DNA of 22,446 nucleotides from an uncultured bacterium. Its GTDB lineage: Bacteria; Bacillota_I; Bacilli_A; RF39; UBA660. Location of the stretch: contig CASDWO010000074.1 in the NCBI GenBank assembly GCA_949284575.1, positions 1 to 22,446 on the forward strand, written 5' to 3'. A program made the translations under genes and the position numbers. The notes under the pieces were generated by a model. That model searched no databases. It was not told the DNA's origin and saw nothing but the letters and a program-made list of their open reading frames with translations. Positions 2,790 through 9,993 of the stretch are shown here, piece after piece (within the stretch, counting starts at the first letter, position 1; the number at the start of each line of letters is the position of its first letter).

Positions 2790-4571
2790 ATGGTTAGTAA
2801 AATTAATAATTTAGTTAAAGATAAGAAAAAAGTAATTATTGCTTTTGTTATCTTAATTATTTTGATAGCAGCTCTTTATTTTTCATATGCTTGGTTAAGA
2901 ACTGTGTTATATGGAGAAAAAGATGTACAATTAATTGTAGGAGATATCGATTTAGTTTTAGATGAATCTAATACTGAAGGAATTCAACTTGTTAATGTTA
3001 TTCCTACTTATGATGAAGAAGGTAGAATGAATGAACCTTATAAATTTTCATTAGAAAATAAGAGTGATATTCCATTATATTTTACTTTATCTTTAGTTGA
3101 TGATGAGGAAGCTTTAGAATCTTGTCAAACTACAGATGGAGGAGCTTGTGAGTTATTAGATGGTAGGGATATTAGATATGATTTACAACTAGATGGAGAG
3201 ACATTTACAGGAACTTTATCAGATTCTTATATGGTAAGTTATGGAATTATTGATGCTCATGAAAAATTAGATGGAGAACTAAAGATATGGCTTAATATTA
3301 ATGCTACTAGCGAAGCGATGGGAAAAGTATTTTTAGGAAAATTAAAAGTATTTGCTTCTCAACAAGTAGATGAAGATTTTGTTCAAGGTAATGATGCTGC
3401 TAATCCTCCAGTAATGGATGATAATATGATTGCTATTAAACATGATGGGTATAACTGGGTTAAGACAGATATAGATAATGGTTGGTATAATTATGATATG
3501 CAAATATGGCCTAATGCTGTAACTGTTAAGAGTGATAAGTTAGCAGAATACCAAAGTGCAGGAGTAGGTACTGTAATAAATATGGATGATGTAGAAACTA
3601 TGTGGGTATGGATACCAAGATATAGTTATACAATAGCTAGTGAGAATGGAAGTACATATTATGGAAAAAAAGGGACTTATTTAACGACGACGCCAACAGC
3701 TGCTTTACCGGGAGAAATAGATGTTAAGTTTATTAAAACAACAGAAAAGGATGAAGGAACAGCAAGATATTTAGCTACAGAAGAGCCTAAAAATTACCGA
3801 ACACCTGATGCGTTTACATTTAATGGTGAAGAGTTAGATGGAATATGGGTAGGAAAATTTGAGACAAGTAGTAGTAATCCTGAATTAGTAAATGGAGGAG
3901 GAAATACTACAAGTTTAGATCCGATGATTAAGCCAAATGTAACAAGTTGGAGAAGTATAAATGTAAGCAATATATATAATGTGGGATTGAAGGTAAGTGC
4001 TGAAGGAAATAGATATGGCTTTAGTACAAATATGAATTCTCATGCTATGAAGAATACAGAATGGGCTGCAGTTGCCTATTTATCACAAAGTAAATATGGA
4101 AAATTAGGAAATCAAAACTTTAGTGGAGCAAATAAGGAAGTATATCAAAATAAAAGTGATTTATATATAACAGGATGTAGTTATGGAAGTCCAAGTAATT
4201 CTAATGAAGATTATGGATGTCAATATACATACGATAACAACGTAAGAGATGAGAATGGAATGATAGGAAGAGGAGTAGGAGCCTCAACGACTGGAACAAT
4301 CTATGGTATTTATGATATGAGTGGAGGAGCATGGGAATATGTCTTGGCCAACTATAATGATATTATAGCAAATAGTGGCTTTACTGAAATGCCTCCAGTA
4401 CAGTATTATGATAAATATACGACAGATAATATTTTAACAGCATGTAATGGAAATGAGTGTTTGGGTCATAATTTATCAGAAACACGAGGATGGTATAACG
4501 ATGCACAGACATTTGTCAACGCTGAATATCCATGGTTGGTGCGCGGCGGTGGCTGTCCATTGGTCGTGTGA
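2790..4571 (+). CDS. DGR target protein: N-terminal signal anchor, large extracytoplasmic region, C-terminal FGE-sulfatase/C-type-lectin-like domain. It appears truncated inside its VR.
   Basis: 593 aa. TM segment VIIAFVILIILIAALYF. C-terminal signatures typical of DGR CLec/FGE targets: NTEWAAVAYL, GIYDMSGGAWEYV, WLVRGG. The ORF stops at TGA-TAA (4569-4574) inside the VR, before the conserved SFRLV strand, which lies in another frame. Confidence 0.85.
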   Translation: MVSKINNLVKDKKKVIIAFVILIILIAALYFSYAWLRTVLYGEKDVQLIVGDIDLVLDESNTEGIQLVNVIPTYDEEGRMNEPYKFSLENKSDIPLYFTLSLVDDEEALESCQTTDGGACELLDGRDIRYDLQLDGETFTGTLSDSYMVSYGIIDAHEKLDGELKIWLNINATSEAMGKVFLGKLKVFASQQVDEDFVQGNDAANPPVMDDNMIAIKHDGYNWVKTDIDNGWYNYDMQIWPNAVTVKSDKLAEYQSAGVGTVINMDDVETMWVWIPRYSYTIASENGSTYYGKKGTYLTTTPTAALPGEIDVKFIKTTEKDEGTARYLATEEPKNYRTPDAFTFNGEELDGIWVGKFETSSSNPELVNGGGNTTSLDPMIKPNVTSWRSINVSNIYNVGLKVSAEGNRYGFSTNMNSHAMKNTEWAAVAYLSQSKYGKLGNQNFSGANKEVYQNKSDLYITGCSYGSPSNSNEDYGCQYTYDNNVRDENGMIGRGVGASTTGTIYGIYDMSGGAWEYVLANYNDIIANSGFTEMPPVQYYDKYTTDNILTACNGNECLGHNLSETRGWYNDAQTFVNAEYPWLVRGGGCPLVV

Positions 4572-4645
4572 TAATTTGATGTTTTTTTTTTACTCTATTT
4601 TTTGGGGTGGTGCTTGCTCGTTCCGCCTCGTGATGAGCGTGACTA
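4532..4645 (+). repeat. cassette C1: expressed-site variable region (VR) with 3' IMH-like GC block
   Basis: GCGCGGCGGT at 4541-4550, 68-nt core, CGTTCCGCCTCGTGAT at 4619-4634. The core has 0 Asn codons, is T-rich, and holds a T10 tract at 4582-4591. It is homologous to 11 downstream cassettes. Confidence 0.85.
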
Positions 4646-4658
4646 GCCCGTAGGGCTA
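4644..4658 (+). promoter_or_regulatory. GC-rich hairpin immediately 3' of the VR/IMH (candidate DGR target-recognition hairpin)
   Basis: TAGCCC (4644-4649), loop GTA, GGGCTA (4653-4658). It is present only after C1 and after none of the intergenic cassettes. Its position matches the hairpin/cruciform that follows the IMH in the Bordetella phage paradigm. Confidence 0.55.
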
Positions 4659-4732: not shown

Positions 4733-4772
4733 GCCTCGGCGCCCTCTTTTTTAGCGACGAGGCGTTTTTTTT
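4733..4772 (+). terminator. intrinsic terminator downstream of the target gene
   Basis: GCCTCG (4733-4738) pairs with CGAGGC (4758-4763), extended by CGC/GCG pairs, followed by T8 (4765-4772). Confidence 0.6.
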
Positions 4773-4783
4773 GAAACTAAAAT

Positions 4784-4815
4784 GATCAAGGTCCTGATTT
4801 TTCAGGGCCTTGATC
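4784..4815 (+). terminator. second strong stem-loop (terminator-like)
   Basis: GATCAAGGTCCTGA (4784-4797), loop TTTT, TCAGGGCCTTGATC (4802-4815): 14 bp with one G-T pair. It is followed by TAATTTTTAATTT, which is not a clean U-tract. Confidence 0.4.
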
Positions 4816-5183
4816 TAATTTTTAATTTATAATTTTCTTTTTGCTTGTTCCATATATTGGTGAGATTTTCTATAGTAAGGTAAATCTTTAAATTAAACTT
4901 TTTCTTTATATGGTTTTATTGTAATATTTGTATGTTCTTGGATTTTTATTTGATATATTTTTTTAAAACTCTTATTTAGAACTGTTTTGTTTCTAATATT
5001 TAATTTTTCTATACTTATTAATTATATTAGCTGATAGTAAAAAATGGAAAAAATTGTATTTGATTTTTATTGTTTAAATTTTATAAAATTTAATTGTCAT
5101 CTATATAGATGACAGGGATTAGGTCAAAATGCTTATGTATTTTCGTTGGATTAGTACTCTTTTTGTTAAGAGACTTTTCTTAT

Positions 5184-5296
5184 ATGGTTGGTGCGCGGCG
5201 GTGGCTGTCCATTGGTCGTGTGATAATTTGATGTTTTTTTTTACTCTATTTTTTGGGGTGGTACTTGCTCGTTCCGCCTCGTGATGAGCGTGACTA
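5184..5296 (+). repeat. cassette C2: near-identical intergenic twin of the expressed VR
   Basis: 113 nt against the 114 nt of C1. The only differences are T9 (5234-5242) against T10, and A5263 against G4612. In frame it reads RGGGCPLVV**FDVFFFYSIFWGGTCSFRLVMSVTMM*. An in-frame TAA lies 7 codons upstream. The 3' flank switches to the cassette-type spacer. Confidence 0.85.
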
Positions 5297-5514
5297 TGAT
5301 GTGATTATAGTTTAAGTTATTACTTATGTAATAAAAAATTTAATATCCTAGAGACTTAATTCCTACTTTTTTAAGTAAACTTATAATATGATGATGGGTA
5401 AGTAGTTAATTTGGGCGAAAATCAAAAATCATAGGGCAAGTACCTCTTGCCTTTTTTACTTTAGTGTTTTATTTTATATATGCGGGAGAAGTTTAATTTG
5501 TTTTTTTAGTTGTT

Positions 5515-5619
5515 GCGCGGCGGTGGTTATAATAATGACACTAATACCGGTGTTTTCTATTTCGATCATGCGGTTGAGTATGGTTCTACAGGTGTTAATG
5601 TGTCGTTCCGCCTCGTGAT
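5515..5619 (+). repeat. cassette C3 (26-codon core)
   Basis: Translates RGG-GYNNDTNTGVFYFDHAVEYGSTGVNV-SFRLVIGDY... with 4 Asn. TAG lies two codons upstream of the Arg codon. 3' class is ATAGGAGAC. Confidence 0.85.
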
Positions 5620-5836
5620 AGGAGACTACAATATAATTTTATTTAAGTTATTGCTATTTAGTAATAAAAAATATTTATTGTAGAACTTTTTCCTTTTTAC
5701 TTTAGTAAATAAAATAATGAAGTACTATTTTTCTAGGTAGTAAATACTGAACACTAGAAAAATATATTGTTGTTTGTAATACTTGTTTATGATAAATTTT
5801 ATGTAGGGAGAAGTTAATTTAGTTTTTCTAGTTGGT

Positions 5837-5941
5837 GCGCGGCGGTAGCTATAACGATAATACTGGTGCAGGTATGTTCAACTTTAATCGTACTAATACT
5901 TTAGGAGTTGGTAGTAATAATCATTCGTTCCGCCTCGTGAT
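5837..5941 (+). repeat. cassette C4 (26-codon core)
   Basis: RGG-SYNDNTGAGMFNFNRTNTLGVGSNNH-SFRLVI* with 7 Asn. TAG lies two codons upstream. 3' class is ATTTGAGAC. Confidence 0.85.
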
Positions 5942-6160
5942 TTGAGACTACAATATAGTTTTATTTAAGTTATTGCTATTTAGTAATAAAAAATATTTAT
6001 TGTAGAACTTTTTCCTTTTTACTTTGGTAAATAAATTAAAGAAGTATTATTTTTCTAGTTAGTAAATAGTGAACTCTAGAAAAATATATTGTTGTTGATA
6101 ATATTTGTTTATGATAAATTTGATGTAGGGGAGAAGTTTAATTTGTGTTTTTTAGTTGTT

Positions 6161-6265
6161 GCGCGGCGGTGGTTATAACAATGCTACTAATGCAGGTATG
6201 TTTTATTTCAATAACAGTAATATTACTGGTGGAGCTAATATCGATAGATCGTTCCGCCTCGTGAT
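6161..6265 (+). repeat. cassette C5 (26-codon core)
   Basis: RGG-GYNNATNAGMFYFNNSNITGGANIDR-SFRLVIGDY... with 7 Asn. TAG lies two codons upstream. Confidence 0.85.
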
Positions 6266-6481
6266 AGGAGACTACAATATAGTTTTATTTAAGTTATTAC
6301 TTATGTAATAAAAAATATTTATTGTAGAAACTTTTTCCTTTTTACTTTGGTAAATAAAATAATGAAGTACTATTTTTCTAGTTAGTAAATAATGAACACT
6401 GGAAAAATATATTGTTGTTTGTAATGTTTGTTTATGATAAATTTGATGTAGGGAGAAGTTAATTTTGTTTTTCTAGTTGGG

Positions 6482-6589
6482 GCGCGGCGGTAACTATAAT
6501 TCTGGTGGTGCCATTGCAGGTGTGTTTTATTTCAATAATAGTAATATTACTGGTGAAGCTAATATCAATAGATCGTTCCGCCTCGTGAT
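6482..6589 (+). repeat. cassette C6 (27-codon core)
   Basis: RGG-NYNSGGAIAGVFYFNNSNITGEANINR-SFRLVI* with 7 Asn. TAG lies two codons upstream. The 3' half is nearly identical to C5. Confidence 0.85.
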
Positions 6590-6814
6590 TTGAGACTACG
6601 ATATAAGATTATTTAAGTTATTACTTGTGTAATAAAAAATATTTATCATAGAAACTTTTTCCTTTTTACGAGTAGTATTAGTAAATAAAATAATGAAGTA
6701 CTATTTTTCTAGTTAGTAAATACTGAATACTAGAAAAATAAAATATTGTTAATAGATTTTCTTTATGATAAATTTTATGTAGGGGAGAAGTTAATTTTGT
6801 TTTTTTAGGTTGTT

Positions 6815-6913
6815 GCGCGGCGGTAGTTATATTAATTCTAATGCAGGTATGTTTTATTTCAATATTAACGTAGCTGGCAATGCAAATAGTAATGGCTCGT
6901 TCCGCCTCGTGAT
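6815..6913 (+). repeat. cassette C7 (24-codon core)
   Basis: RGG-SYINSNAGMFYFNINVAGNANSNG-SFRLVIGDY... with 7 Asn. An in-frame TAA lies 8 codons upstream. Confidence 0.85.
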
Positions 6914-7133
6914 AGGAGACTACAATATAGTTTTATTTAAGTTATTACTATATTGGTAATAAAAAATATTTATTGTAGAGACTTTTTCCTTTTTACTTTG
7001 GTAAATAAAATAATGAAGTATTATTTTTCTGGTTAGTAATTAGTGAACACTAGAAAAATATGATGTTGTTAATATTAATTATTTATGATAATTTTAATAT
7101 TGGGAAAAACTTTAAATTATTTTTTGCGTTATT

Positions 7134-7232
7134 ACGCGGCGGTAACTATAACAATAATACTAATGCAGGTGTGTTTAACTTTAATCATGTTGATGGTAAT
7201 ACTAATATTAATTGGTCGTTCCGCCTCGTGAT
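7134..7232 (+). repeat. cassette C8 (24-codon core, most Asn-rich)
   Basis: RGG-NYNNNTNAGVFNFNHVDGNTNINW-SFRLVI* with 10 Asn. The 5' block is ACGCGGCGGT. The leader variant is GGGAAAAACTT. An in-frame ATG at 7060 gives at most a 58-aa ORF (7060-7236). Confidence 0.85.
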
Positions 7233-7450
7233 TTGAGACTATGATATGAGATTGTTTAAGTTATTACTATATTAGTAATAAAAAATATTTATCATAGAAG
7301 TTTTTTCCTTTTTACTTTGGTAAATAAAATAATGAAGTACTATTTTTCTAGTCAGTAATTAGTGAACACTAGAAAAATATAGTGTTGTTAATAGTATCTA
7401 TTTATGATAATTTTAATATAGGGAGAAGTTATATTTATTATTTTGTTATT

Positions 7451-7549
7451 GCGCGGCGGTGGTTTTAATAATACGACTAATGCAGGTGTTTTCAACTTTG
7501 GTAACACTCTTGGTAATGGTGACAGCAATAATTCGTTCCGCCTCGTGAT
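7451..7549 (+). repeat. cassette C9 (24-codon core), unit with truncated spacer
   Basis: RGG-GFNNTTNAGVFNFGNTLGNGDSNN-SFRLVI* with 8 Asn. The next cassette follows after only 219 bp. The spacer lacks the CTTTTTCC segment and the TTTTTCTAG/CTAGAAAAA hairpin. Confidence 0.85.
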
Positions 7550-7669
7550 TTGAGACTATGATATAAGATTGTTTAAGAAGTTATTACCTATGTAAAAAAT
7601 TTATTGTTAATAATACCTATTTATGTTAATTTTTATATAGGGGAAAGTTAATTTTGTTTTTTAGTTGTT

Positions 7670-7768
7670 GCGCGGCGGTAACTATAATAATTCTAATGCA
7701 GGTATGTTTTATTTCAATACCTGGAATATTGGTAATACTAGTATTAATGGCTCGTTCCGCCTCGTGAT
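7670..7768 (+). repeat. cassette C10 (24-codon core)
   Basis: RGG-NYNNSNAGMFYFNTWNIGNTSING-SFRLVI* with 8 Asn. TAG lies two codons upstream. The 5' half is nearly identical to C7. Confidence 0.85.
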
Positions 7769-7992
7769 TTGAGACTACGATATAGTTTTATTTAAATTAT
7801 TACTTATGTAATAAAAAATATTTATCATAGAAACTTTTTCCTTTTTACGAGCAGTATTAGTGAATAAAATAATGAAGTACTATTTTTCTAGTTAGTAATT
7901 AGTGAACACTAGAAAAATATAGTGTTGTTAATAGTATCTATTTATGATAATTTTAATATAGGGAAAAGGTAAATGTATTTTAGTTGGTTGGT

Positions 7993-8091
7993 GCGCGGCG
8001 GTGTATTTAGTAATAATACTGATGTTGGTATTTTCTACTTTAGTTATACTATTGGTGGTGGTAGCATCTTTAGTTCGTTCCGCCTCATGAT
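7993..8091 (+). repeat. cassette C11 (24-codon core, adenine/Asn-poor, VR-like flanks)
   Basis: RGG-VFSNNTDVGIFYFSYTIGGGSIFS-SFRLMMKDY... with only 2 Asn. The 5' flank GGTTGGTGCGCGG matches the VR. The 3' block is the variant CGTTCCGCCTCATGATGAAAGAC, where the VR has ...GTGATGAGCGTGAC. An in-frame ATG at 7973 gives at most a 53-aa ORF. Confidence 0.85.
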
Positions 8092-8282
8092 GAAAGACTA
8101 CGATATAGTTTTATTTAAGTTATTACTTATGTAATAAAAAATATTTATCATAGAAACTTTTTCCATTTTACGAACGGTATTAGTAAATAAATTAAAGAAG
8201 TATTATTTTTCTAGTTAGTAGATAGTGAATACTAGAAAAATAAAATATTGTTAATAATATCTATTTATGATAATTTTGATAT

Positions 8283-8566
8283 AGGGAGAAGTTATATTTA
8301 TTATTTTGTTTTGCGCGGCGGTAGCTATAATGCGACTTCTAATGCAGGTGTGTTTAATTTCAATACTTGGAACAATGGTAATGCTAATTCTAATGGATCG
8401 TTCCGCCTCGTGATTTGAGACTACAATATAGTTTTATTTAAGTTATTGCTATTTAGTAATAAAAAATATTTATTGTAGAGACTTTTTCCTTTTTACGAGC
8501 AGTATTAGTAAATAAAATAAAGAAGTACTATTTTTCTAGTTAGTAAATAGTGAATACTAGAAAAAT
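8283..8566 (+). ncRNA. candidate DGR template RNA unit (leader, TR-like core, structured spacer) adjacent to avd
   Basis: Leader AGGGAGAAGTT (8283-8293) can pair with GACTTTTTCCT (8480-8490) and so enclose the core. The nested CTACAATA/TATTGTAG and TTATTGCTA/TAGTAATAA hairpins are present, as is the terminal hairpin ATTTTTCTAG (8530-8539) / CTAGAAAAAT (8557-8566). The same architecture repeats in most units. Transcription is not demonstrated. Confidence 0.45.
8313..8414 (+). repeat. cassette C12 (25-codon core), positional candidate for a canonical TR next to avd
   Basis: RGG-SYNATSNAGVFNFNTWNNGNANSNG-SFRLVI* with 9 Asn. It is the last unit, and its spacer runs directly into the avd RBS. Confidence 0.85.
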
Positions 8567-8587
8567 AGTGGATGAGGAGTGATAACT

Positions 8588-8944
8588 ATGGATGATTTAG
8601 AAGGATTAGTTATTTATAAACAATATGTTGAACTTATTTATTATACTCTTTCTATTTTACTTAAATATCCTAAATCTGAAAGATTTTCTTTAGCTCAAGA
8701 TATTAAAAATACTACTTATGCAGGACTTAAAGATATTATTTATGCTCAAAAAGAATATGATAAGAAAAAGAGACTTTCTTATTTAAATGAACTTGATGCT
8801 AATTTAAAAATAGTTAAAGTTTTGATTAGAGTTTCTCATAAGAAAAAATATATTACTTCAAAAAATTATACAGCTTGGAGTAAGAAAATTGCTAATATTT
8901 CTAATCTTAATGGAGGTTGGATTAAATCATGCCTCATACGATAA
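8588..8944 (+). CDS. avd: DGR accessory variability determinant (Avd, four-helix-bundle family)
   Basis: About 118 aa, basic and helical, with the pattern typical of Avd / 23S-rRNA-IVS-like proteins (YKQYVELIYYT...KYPKSERFSLAQDI...LDANLKIVKVLIRVSHKKKYI). GAGGAG at 8574-8579 precedes ATG 8588; the ORF track starts at GTG 8579. It overlaps the RT start by 16 nt. Confidence 0.85.
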   Translation: MDDLEGLVIYKQYVELIYYTLSILLKYPKSERFSLAQDIKNTTYAGLKDIIYAQKEYDKKKRLSYLNELDANLKIVKVLIRVSHKKKYITSKNYTAWSKKIANISNLNGGWIKSCLIR

Positions 8945-9993
8945 GAAATGCTTATTTGAAACATTTAACTATAGAGTCATTAATTGAAGCTCATGAGAGG
9001 GCTAGTAAGACAAAGAGATATTCCAAAGAAGTATTAAAATTTGAAATTGATCTTGAGAGTAATATAGTTAATTTATATAAGAAATTAAAAAATGGGACAT
9101 ATAAAATGGGAAAATATCGAGAATTTAAGATATTTGAGCCTAAAGAGAGGATAATTAGATCTTTACCTTATGTTGATAGAATTGTTCATCAGTGGTATGT
9201 TCATGAGTTTATAAAACCTTATGTTATACCTAGGTTTATTGTTGATTCTTATGCTTGTATAGACGGAAGAGGAACTCATAAAGCGGTTGATAGGATTCAA
9301 GCTTATATGCAAAATATGAAAAATAAATATGGTACTTACTATATAGTAAAATGTGATATTAAGGGATTCTTTTATAATATAGATAAAGATGTATTATTAA
9401 ATATTATGTTAAAATTTATTAAAGATGAGAAATTAATTTGGCTTACTAAAGAGTTTATTTATGGAGATGAAGATGAGATTGGATTGCCAATTGGTAATTA
9501 TACTTCACAATTTTTTGCTAATATTTATATGAACGAGCTTGATCATTATGCTAAAGAAGAATTGAAACTTAAGTATTATGTTAGATATATGGATGATTTT
9601 GTGTTTTTGGTTAAAACAAAAGAAGATGCTAGGAAATATATGGAACTTATTGCAGTTTTTCTAAAAGAAAAGTTACATATTCAATTGAATCATAAGAGTG
9701 GATATTATCCTAATAAAATGGGCCTTGATTTTTGTGGATTTCGTATTTATGAGAGTTATCGGTTACTTAGAAAGAGAAGTATTAAGAAAATAAAAAGAAA
9801 GATTAGAAAGTGGAATGAATTGTATTCTCATAATTTGTTAGATTTAGAGAAAACAATTTTAGAATGGAATTCTTGGCTTGGACATAGTTCTCATGCTAAG
9901 TGTTATAAATTGCAATGGGATATGTATAATAGGATTCTTTTTAAAGAGCATTTGAAGAAACCTTATGTGGAGACTTATGGACGAATATTATAG
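8929..9993 (+). CDS. DGR reverse transcriptase
   Basis: 354 aa. RT motifs include IVKCDIKGFFYNID, the DGR-typical LPIGNYTSQFFANIYMNELD (the SQ motif) and YVRYMDDFVF (YMDD). The size is compact with no maturase or endonuclease domains, and it is translationally coupled to avd. Confidence 0.93.
   Translation: MPHTIRNAYLKHLTIESLIEAHERASKTKRYSKEVLKFEIDLESNIVNLYKKLKNGTYKMGKYREFKIFEPKERIIRSLPYVDRIVHQWYVHEFIKPYVIPRFIVDSYACIDGRGTHKAVDRIQAYMQNMKNKYGTYYIVKCDIKGFFYNIDKDVLLNIMLKFIKDEKLIWLTKEFIYGDEDEIGLPIGNYTSQFFANIYMNELDHYAKEELKLKYYVRYMDDFVFLVKTKEDARKYMELIAVFLKEKLHIQLNHKSGYYPNKMGLDFCGFRIYESYRLLRKRSIKKIKRKIRKWNELYSHNLLDLEKTILEWNSWLGHSSHAKCYKLQWDMYNRILFKEHLKKPYVETYGRIL

Follow-up and report, generated by a model that had tools for sequence, protein, structure and literature searches.

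We analysed a 22,446-nt stretch of DNA from an uncultured bacterium (GTDB lineage Bacteria; Bacillota_I; Bacilli_A; RF39; UBA660; GenBank assembly GCA_949284575.1, contig CASDWO010000074.1, positions 1 to 22,446 of the forward strand), which we call the window and which contains a chromosomal diversity-generating retroelement (DGR). Its elements lie in the order target gene, variable region (VR) with its hairpin (4532-4658), two terminators, an adenine-poor cassette that we call u1 (about 5060-5460), ten template units, the bAvd accessory gene and the reverse transcriptase (RT) gene. We find that the VR is a near-faithful copy of u1, and that two in-frame stop codons present in u1 end the target reading frame. 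We interpret this arrangement as a real and recurrent OFF allele of the DGR target gene that can be rewritten from the templates, and we give this reading as a whole a probability of about 0.7.

The variable region closely matches an adenine-poor cassette

We compared the VR with every cassette of the array. The VR is a 114-nt tract on the forward strand (4532-4645; direct-repeat families D10 and D11), and it aligns to u1 (5184-5296) with a single substitution and one extra T, that is, with no mismatch at a non-adenine position and one gap. The substitution, a G at 4612 in the VR for an A at 5263, falls on a u1 adenine, and one of the eight u1 adenines is changed in the window. The TGA TAA at 4569-4574, which ends the target open reading frame (ORF), is found as the identical six bases at 5221-5226 in u1. 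A T10 homopolymer (4582-4591), located 3' of the stops and without effect on the protein, corresponds to a T9 run in u1 (5234-5242). The core between the anchors CGCGGCGGT and CGTTCC measures 68 nt in the VR and 67 nt in its twin (5194-5270), and the VR reading frame contains no Asn codon. All 12 copies (VR, u1 and the ten cassettes) have the GC-rich element CGTTCCGCCTCGTG in common; the VR-type 3' element GATGAGCGTGACTA occurs only in the VR and u1.

Near-identity of this kind over 113 nt cannot be due to chance. Each of the ten Asn-rich cassettes differs from the VR by 9-22 non-adenine mismatches and 7-25 gaps, which rules out that the VR is a heavily mutagenised product of one of these templates. 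Because the VR matches u1 and no other cassette, the double stop, the T run and the missing Asn codons are u1 sequence rather than damage accrued in the VR. An earlier sequence-only reading of this stretch had described the disrupted VR, and its observations agree with ours: the coordinates of the TGA-TAA and of the T10 tract hold base for base, translation places SFRLV from 4618 in another frame, that of a 68-aa ORF-list entry (4447..4653), the 68-nt core is out of register, the VR frame lacks Asn codons, and the T9 of the copy then named C2 restores the RGG/SFRLV register and leaves both stops in place. C2, which is u1, had been regarded simply as a twin of the VR; our analysis identifies it as the source of the VR.

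The copied sequence truncates the target protein

The target gene (2790-4571, forward strand, from the ORF list and its translation) is a truncated allele encoding 593 aa, compared with 605-630 aa in its homologues. Its ORF closes with ...YPWLVRGGGCPLVV and is stopped by a TGA (4569-4571), which a TAA (4572-4574) follows directly. The conserved tail SFRLVMSVTSP and its stop (4618-4653) are now out of frame: TCGTTCCGCCTCGTG (TCG TTC CGC CTC GTG) encodes SFRLV from 4618, shifted by +1 from the ORF frame and in that of ORF-list entry 4447-4653, and is followed by MSVTSP and a stop at 4651-4653. Both the GC-rich element CGTTCCGCCTCGTG and the VR-type 3' element GATGAGCGTGACTA fall within the sequence that encodes this tail. 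We surveyed the VR in 120 homologue cluster representatives of the target protein, 111 of which have a full-length VR with a conserved S-F/Y/L-R/C-L/I/F-V strand and tail. The majority of these tails read SFRLVMS(V/P)(T)SP, the very peptide that is out of frame in the window. A genuinely short C-terminus, one of the explanations offered by the sequence-only reading, does not survive this comparison. The truncation removes about 30 residues, comprising the variable loop and the conserved terminal SFRLV strand, and leaves the other 580 codons open and 72-76% identical to full-length homologues. Since the lost SFRLV strand is near-invariant among homologues, the truncation would be expected to inactivate the target protein, and the lost loop is predicted to be the one that contacts the ligand.

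TAA is a stop under any bacterial code. A reassignment of TGA to Trp or Gly is ruled out by the TAA that directly follows the TGA, and by rpsL, rpsG, fusA and tuf, which are full-length table-11 ORFs in the window and indicate the standard genetic code. We also considered slipped-strand phase variation at the T10 tract, which had been suggested before. The tract does change in length (T10 in the VR, T9 in u1), and a T9 returns SFRLV to register, but the TGA-TAA (4569-4574) is in the ORF frame and precedes the tract (4582-4591) by 8 nt, so that no tract length can reopen the ORF or restore the protein. Moreover, the T run of other lineages is located elsewhere in the core or is interrupted. The chance that slippage at this tract toggles the gene is thus negligible. 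A homopolymer sequencing error, also proposed earlier, could account for T10 versus T9 but is irrelevant to the disruption, again because the stops are upstream.

The target protein has an N-terminal transmembrane helix and a C-terminal domain that ends in the VR and looks, by eye, like an FGE/CLec domain; the motifs GIYDMSGGAWEY and W-x-x-RGG ... SFRLV resemble FGE/CLec proteins, likewise by eye only. The Pfam FGE-sulfatase family matches the target domain with E values of 0.009-0.036 (0.036 for the window target) and 14-16 bits, below the cutoff of 23.3, and a profile search of the PDB with the target gave no sequence match. An AlphaFold2 model of the full-length homologue P0003, computed from 25 sequences, had a predicted local distance difference test score (pLDDT) of 38.7 and is unusable for assigning a fold.

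Direction, boundaries and fidelity of the transfer

Related loci were fetched via the target protein, and the region 3' of the target was available for eight syntenic loci (the window, L033, L035, L036, L037, L039, L059 and L064). The T-rich u1 core is found in strains whose VR is of the classical kind (L036, L037, L039 and L064). Because u1 keeps this core where the VR is classical, the T-rich sequence pre-exists in u1 and is copied from u1 into the VR. The pair L039 and L058 points the same way, since L039 combines a normal VR with a u1 whose exact core occupies the VR of L058. The opposite direction, in which u1 with its VR-type flank would have been copied from the VR, is ruled out, as u1 of L037, L039 and L064 has this flank next to a normal VR, and as the two flanks differ in L059.

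The L059 locus also allows for the boundaries of the copy to be located. Here, the conserved RGG codons are replaced by u1's GCGGCGAG, giving WLLRGECVL followed by a stop, and the copy ends inside GTGATGAG. Beyond this point the flank of the VR (TCCTAGTCC...) departs from that of u1 (AGTGACTACG...). DGR homing has its 3' limit in the GC-rich element and its 5' limit in a short stretch of homology (Guo et al., PMC3240598), and the 3' boundary in L059 is positioned as would be expected for such homing.

We next consider how faithful the transfer is, using five u1/VR twin pairs (the window, L033, L035 and L059, and L058 compared with the u1 of L039). Only 3 of 44 u1 adenines are changed in these pairs, all from A to G, with no difference at a non-adenine position and a single indel in a T run. 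The change from u1-A to VR-G is the commonest type of DGR substitution in the target family. In normal template-VR pairs, 46 of 79 adenines are changed (Fisher p=7e-9). The difference is found in AA contexts (0/8 in the twins versus 41/62 in normal pairs, p=4.5e-4), whereas isolated adenines show a weak contrast (3/36 versus 5/17, p=0.09). Misincorporation by a DGR RT is known to depend on sequence context (PMC12875486). It could also be that heterogeneity at adenine sites is hidden, as metagenome assemblies report the commonest haplotype.

This near-faithful transfer, both over all adenines and in AA contexts, would be accounted for by RT-independent gene conversion, or by template switching during replication, from u1 to the VR, which would have the same OFF outcome. 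The VR and u1 are direct repeats located only 0.45-1.2 kb apart, u1 has 11 more 3' bases in common with the VR (GAGCGTGACTA) than the other cassettes have, and the 113-nt identity generated by a first copying event would permit repeated homogenisation. However, the flanking identities before the event amount to only 18 and 28 nt, which is little for recombination of the RecA type but suffices for DGR homing, where at least 8-19 nt at the 5' end and the initiation of mutagenic homing (IMH) sequence are needed (PMC3240598). In L059 the 3' flanks diverge right after GTGATGAG, leaving only about 20 nt of 3' identity. All three differences in the twin pairs are A to G changes on u1 adenines, with none elsewhere, and gene conversion should in addition install unmutated Asn-rich cassettes, yet none of the three normal VRs (L036, L037 and L039) is unmutated. 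Because the starting homologies are short (18 and 20-28 nt), the differences are confined to u1 adenines and the boundaries resemble those of homing, copying by the DGR machinery seems somewhat more likely to us than a recombinational origin of the OFF allele, which is a serious alternative.

In the mechanism that we propose, the u1 core with its TGA-TAA in the target frame would be copied into the VR, with the 5' anchor (ATGGTTGGTGCGCGGCGG) and the GC-rich 3' element that the two have in common as its limits, and the protein would be truncated as a result. The additional T in the VR would represent a secondary slip of no consequence for the protein. A single mutagenic homing event from any one of the templates would then restore a full-length, newly diversified protein.

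ON and OFF alleles coexist among relatives

Classical VRs among the relatives can each be paired with one template. Changed adenines number 16/25 in L036, 18/29 in L037 and 12/25 in L039, mostly from A to G, and there are no non-adenine changes and no gaps. Since these VRs differ from one template only at adenines, the DGR works in the standard way in this target family. A second kind of VR is found in the window, L033, L035 and L059, where the VR is a near-faithful copy of the u1 of its own locus. The VR of L058 is identical to the u1 core of L039, a locus with a classical VR; the target genes of the two are 96% identical in DNA. In L058 the sequence 3' of the VR hairpin (5540-5968) holds an unrelated gene instead of the terminator and u1, and this divergence reflects a rearrangement of the locus or else a join at a coverage of 2.2x.

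A u1-type VR is present in 8 of the 120 cluster representatives (about 7%; P0001, P0004, P0012, P0015, P0023, P0027, P0049 and P0102). Seven of these eight are truncated or frameshifted and one, P0012, is in frame; in one further representative (P0059, 1/120) the truncation lies upstream of the VR. The first 575 aa of P0027 and P0023 match those of the full-length alleles P0032, P0034 and P0036 with 100% and 99.8% identity, respectively, and P0012 is 98.4% identical to P0005 outside the VR. Because near-identical backbones carry both states, ON and OFF alleles coexist on one gene backbone, and the switch between them is recent and recurrent. It may be selected for.

The OFF state of the window could in principle have been produced during assembly, if the high-coverage u1 core were threaded between the anchors of a hypervariable VR. 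The window comes from a metagenome scaffold, both anchors are common to the VR and u1, and a diversifying VR splits its read coverage among variants. The two copies, however, differ inside the core (G4612/A5263 and T10/T9 in the window, and two internal differences in L059), which means that different reads underlie them. With 18-28 nt, the anchors common to both are shorter than the largest k-mers that such assemblers usually use, and the same state is found independently in at least seven other samples or assemblies. We therefore regard an assembly artefact as very unlikely.

The remaining question is whether the target gene is simply dead in this lineage, so that its likeness to u1 would have no functional meaning. 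Surveys drop more than half of the DGR candidates because of defects such as premature stops and truncations (PMC5758913), the window combines a double stop with a frameshift, and an ON allele of its own species was not found. Irreversible pseudogenisation is nevertheless hard to reconcile with the state of the locus. The rest of the gene, 580 codons, is open and as similar to full-length homologues as stated above, the lesion is confined exactly to the replaceable tract, the bAvd, RT, ten templates, IMH and hairpin are intact, and near-clonal relatives carry both ON and OFF alleles. We consider it unlikely. Where the sequence-only reading had spoken of an OFF or pseudogene state, the OFF part is borne out by a conserved source (u1), by the intact parts needed for rewriting and by the ON and OFF relatives, and irreversible decay is disfavoured. 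Because the 5' homology of the VR, the 3' element, the hairpin, bAvd, RT and ten templates are all intact, the OFF state appears rewritable and is probably reversible.

Several points weigh against a recurrent, rewritable OFF allele copied from u1. The near-unmutated twins are unlike the products of standard mutagenic homing, and faithful gene conversion fits them better. Metagenome assemblies would favour an invariant OFF haplotype over many different ON haplotypes, and therefore the 8/120 and the state of the window may reflect a subpopulation. The VR state and T-tract length of the window are those of the assembled sequence, and a same-species sample of the window's lineage was not found, the nearest homologue being 76% identical. 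Finally, u1 could be conserved for another RNA function, in which case the disruption of the VR would be only a side effect.

The u1 unit is conserved outside its core

We compared u1 among the syntenic loci. In the window its core lies about 650 bases downstream of the VR, and the first unit 3' of the target is a u1 homologue in 8/8 loci. The parts of u1 follow in the order promoter-like motif, 5' hairpin, AGGGATTA, variable leader, shared 5' anchor, core, 3' element and downstream RNA. On the forward strand of the window these include a promoter-like site TTGATT-18-TAAAAT (5060-5089), the 5' hairpin TGTCATCTATATAGATGACA (5095-5114, conserved in relatives) followed by AGGGATTAGGTC, the core with its anchors and 3' element GAGCGTGACTA (5184-5296; A 11%, T 50%) and the downstream RNA (5297-5460), which contains a terminator hairpin (5433-5453). 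In relatives the promoter-like motif is found in the same position as TTGTTA-17-TACAAT with a TG before the second hexamer. A promoter scan of the array returned 32 sites compared with 25.9 in the shuffled expectation and is thus not above it, so that the designation as promoter-like comes from cross-strain conservation only. An inverted repeat, TGGAAAAAACTTCCA, overlaps the -35 of this motif in L033 (10764-10800), L037, L039, L059 and L064, and is degenerate in the window (5042-5060). This repeat is a candidate operator, in which case u1 expression could be regulated.

The u1 cores of all loci are adenine-poor and T-rich (A 9-16%, T 45-55%), compared with 30% A in normal templates and 35.5% A in the whole window. 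The VR-like 3' element GAG[C/A][G/A]TGACTA is present in 7/8 syntenic loci, and the downstream RNA of about 170 nt is near-invariant in seven strains, with compensatory changes in its terminator. Because these flanks are near-invariant although the target proteins of the u1-bearing strains are only 64-76% identical to that of the window, the flanks of u1 are under purifying selection. The core sequence itself varies greatly between strains. As core lengths are 68, 69, 70 or 73 nt, u1 is not kept as an alternative coding end. We found no support for u1 being a leftover duplicate of the target 3' end, since the 75 nt 5' of the u1 anchor show no homology to the target in six loci (z -1.1 to 0.6). 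Adenine-specific diversification of the cores by self-homing was likewise not detected in a 31-nt block from seven strains, where 7/13 variable columns involve A (p=0.22 in a neutral simulation).

It may be that u1 is a dedicated, separately promoted null template, poor in adenines so that it is copied nearly unchanged, which writes stop codons into the VR. The DGR would then give its surface target a reversible ON/OFF switch in addition to diversification, with the ten Asn-rich templates as alternative ON scaffolds. We put this forward tentatively, and below even odds.

A related unit is found in L062 (10070-10340), on a 1.5-Mb contig. It comes after a target paralogue that has no RT in its vicinity, and it resembles u1 in its promoter, 5' hairpin and T-rich core, which are the same. 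It ends in a VR-type flank and target hairpin (GAGTCCTAGTCTGTAAGGACT) instead of the u1 RNA. Elements resembling u1 therefore accompany target genes even away from the array.

The template array and the retroelement genes

Downstream of u1, ten tandem template units are spaced about 320 nt apart (5516-8414), with stop-free cores of 73-82 nt which are rich in Asn/AAY codons and in register. Each unit is preceded by the motif TTGTTAAT...TATGATAAT...AGGGAGAAG and followed by a conserved spacer rich in hairpins (5516-8570). All cassettes lie on the forward strand. Cassettes 1 (5516-5619), 2 (5838-5941) and 3 (6162-6265) have cores of 79 nt and cassette 4 (6483-6589) has one of 82 nt; cores of 73 nt are found in cassettes 5 (6816-6913), 6 (7135-7232), 7 (7452-7549), 8 (7671-7768) and 9 (7994-8091), and one of 76 nt in cassette 10 (8314-8414), the last unit before avd. 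The size of the array varies, from two units in L059 and at least six in L033 to ten in the window. In L036 the donor of the current VR is a single template unit (7624-7705) upstream of the target gene (8001-9875), used although four other templates and u1 lie downstream.

Three kinds of irregular cassette are present in the window. In cassettes 3 and 4 an AGA (Arg) codon lies just 5' of SFRLV (6238-6249 and 6562-6573). Adenine mutagenesis could turn this codon into TGA, and normal templates can therefore occasionally give truncated products as well. The spacer of cassette 7 (7536-7670) is about 100 nt shorter than the others and the next unit follows after 219 nt rather than about 320, so that cassette 7 lacks most of the downstream structured RNA. 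The atypical cassette 9 has only 22% A, encodes ...GGVFSNNTDVGIFYFSYTIGGGSIFSSFRLM and has a mutated right anchor (CTCATGATGAAAGACTA; CGCCTCATGATGAAAGACTA); it may be a template in decay or one that has lost part of its adenines.

RT-14 RNA (Rfam RF02921) is a structured RNA motif that occurs beside reverse transcriptase genes. Among the spacers, four (6272-6410, 6948-7061, 7267-7380 and 8469-8568) match its model over the full length (positions 1-144) with 29-32 bits and E values of about 0.1-0.4, all below the gathering score of 48.1, so these matches are sub-threshold and do not establish membership. The u1 downstream RNA gave no match to the RT-14 model.

The two retroelement genes are intact and follow on the forward strand. 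The bAvd accessory protein (8579-8944) is identified by Pfam bAvd (E=9.5e-24) and by the NCBIfam equivalog DivGenRetAVD (83.7 bits, cutoff 80). The DGR-type RT (8929-9993; Pfam RVT_1, E=1.7e-17) is 354 aa long, as are those of L036, L059 and L064, and carries the DGR-clade motifs [ILV]GxxxSQ and YxDD as LPIGNYTSQ and YMDD; its NCBIfam matches are all far below their cutoffs. By sequence, the elements of a DGR target site are all present, namely a GC-rich 3' element common to VR and templates, a short element of the VR type and, directly 3' of the VR where the target hairpin/cruciform of a DGR lies, the hairpin TAGCCC-GTA-GGGCTA (4644-4658). This hairpin is kept in relatives as TAGTCCGTAAGGACTA, and a hairpin of this kind is required for DGR homing (PMC3240598). 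A template/VR pair differing only at adenines is formed in the window with none of the ten Asn-rich templates, the VR matching u1 only; such pairs are clean in the orthologous loci L036, L037 and L039.

Relation to known systems

We compared the locus with other template-driven and cassette-driven systems. It resembles the DGR of Bordetella phage BPP-1 (mtd VR, TR, avd and brt) in its RT with IGxxxSQ and YMDD motifs, its Avd protein and the location of the VR at the 3' end of the target, and in the GC-rich 3' element common to VR and template repeat (TR), the short differing element and the hairpin (PMC3240598). As in BPP-1, the VRs of orthologous loci differ only at adenines, here at 48-64% of the A sites. 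Unlike BPP-1 with its one template, the window has ten tandem units, each with a promoter-like sequence and a downstream structured RNA, and an extra conserved adenine-poor unit, transferred near-faithfully, occupies the VR in place of a mutagenised Asn-rich copy. The order target, templates, avd and RT and the chromosomal location beside rpsL-rpsG-fusA-tuf also set it apart. Several templates per RT have been reported before, in 53 DGRs that have at least two TRs (PMC11661182) and in a two-TR example from Stenotrophomonas (PMC6642488), though these reports give counts only. The literature that we searched describes no long tandem template array, no AAY-free template and no stop-installing (null) template.

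In Neisseria pilE/pilS and Borrelia vlsE, one expression site is rewritten by one-way copying from partial donor cassettes with conserved flanks, and a stop or frameshift in the donor can give non-functional OFF variants. These systems rely on recombination and use neither reverse transcriptase nor adenine mutagenesis. The window shares with them an array of donors with common flanks, one-way copying and OFF variants, and the near-faithful copy of u1 in the VR fits the pilE/pilS type, in which promoterless silent cassettes are copied non-mutagenically and in dependence on RecA. In contrast to both, its cassettes look independently transcribed, judging by their promoter-like motifs, they lie beside bAvd and RT, and the normal ones are copied mutagenically.

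To our knowledge, DGRs are understood as systems in which one template rewrites one or a few VRs, always toward new functional variants. The design of DGRs avoids stop codons. The conserved u1 template of this natural DGR family works in the reverse sense, its fixed truncating sequence being found at the expression site in about 7% of clusters, near-clonal ON/OFF pairs among them. If the DGR machinery copies u1, a DGR can serve as a phase-variation switch, the adenine content of a template sets the fidelity of copying, and one RT can choose among many templates. If recombination copies u1, the locus would still clearly exemplify a retroelement array that is linked with gene conversion of the cassette type. 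That the locus acts as a programmed phase switch is plausible, but we would not bet on it at present. Our findings bear on the ways in which gut Bacilli conceal or alter their surface ligand-binding proteins, and may be relevant to engineering DGRs with several programmable templates. Surveys that drop targets with premature stops as dead would miss OFF states.

Genomic setting and related target genes

The host is a gut bacterium of the class Bacilli with a low GC content (28.5%), and its closest named relative is Candidatus Onthousia. An identical sequence is found on a metagenome scaffold (ENA ERZ16268097, scaffold_434, 59,495 bp). The DGR locus adjoins rpsL-rpsG-fusA-tuf, and the two terminator-like hairpins 3' of the target gene lie on the forward strand at about 4733-4773 and 4784-4815, the first read from the sequence and the second from a scan.

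A scan of genome contigs returned only distant paralogues of the target (31-58% identity), without this array. In the mouse-gut Bacilli metagenome-assembled genome MGBC137871 (L001-L031), about 20 contigs carry target paralogues with 44-58% identity, a few of them with recognisable VR anchors. These paralogues possibly form a large multigene target family served by one DGR.

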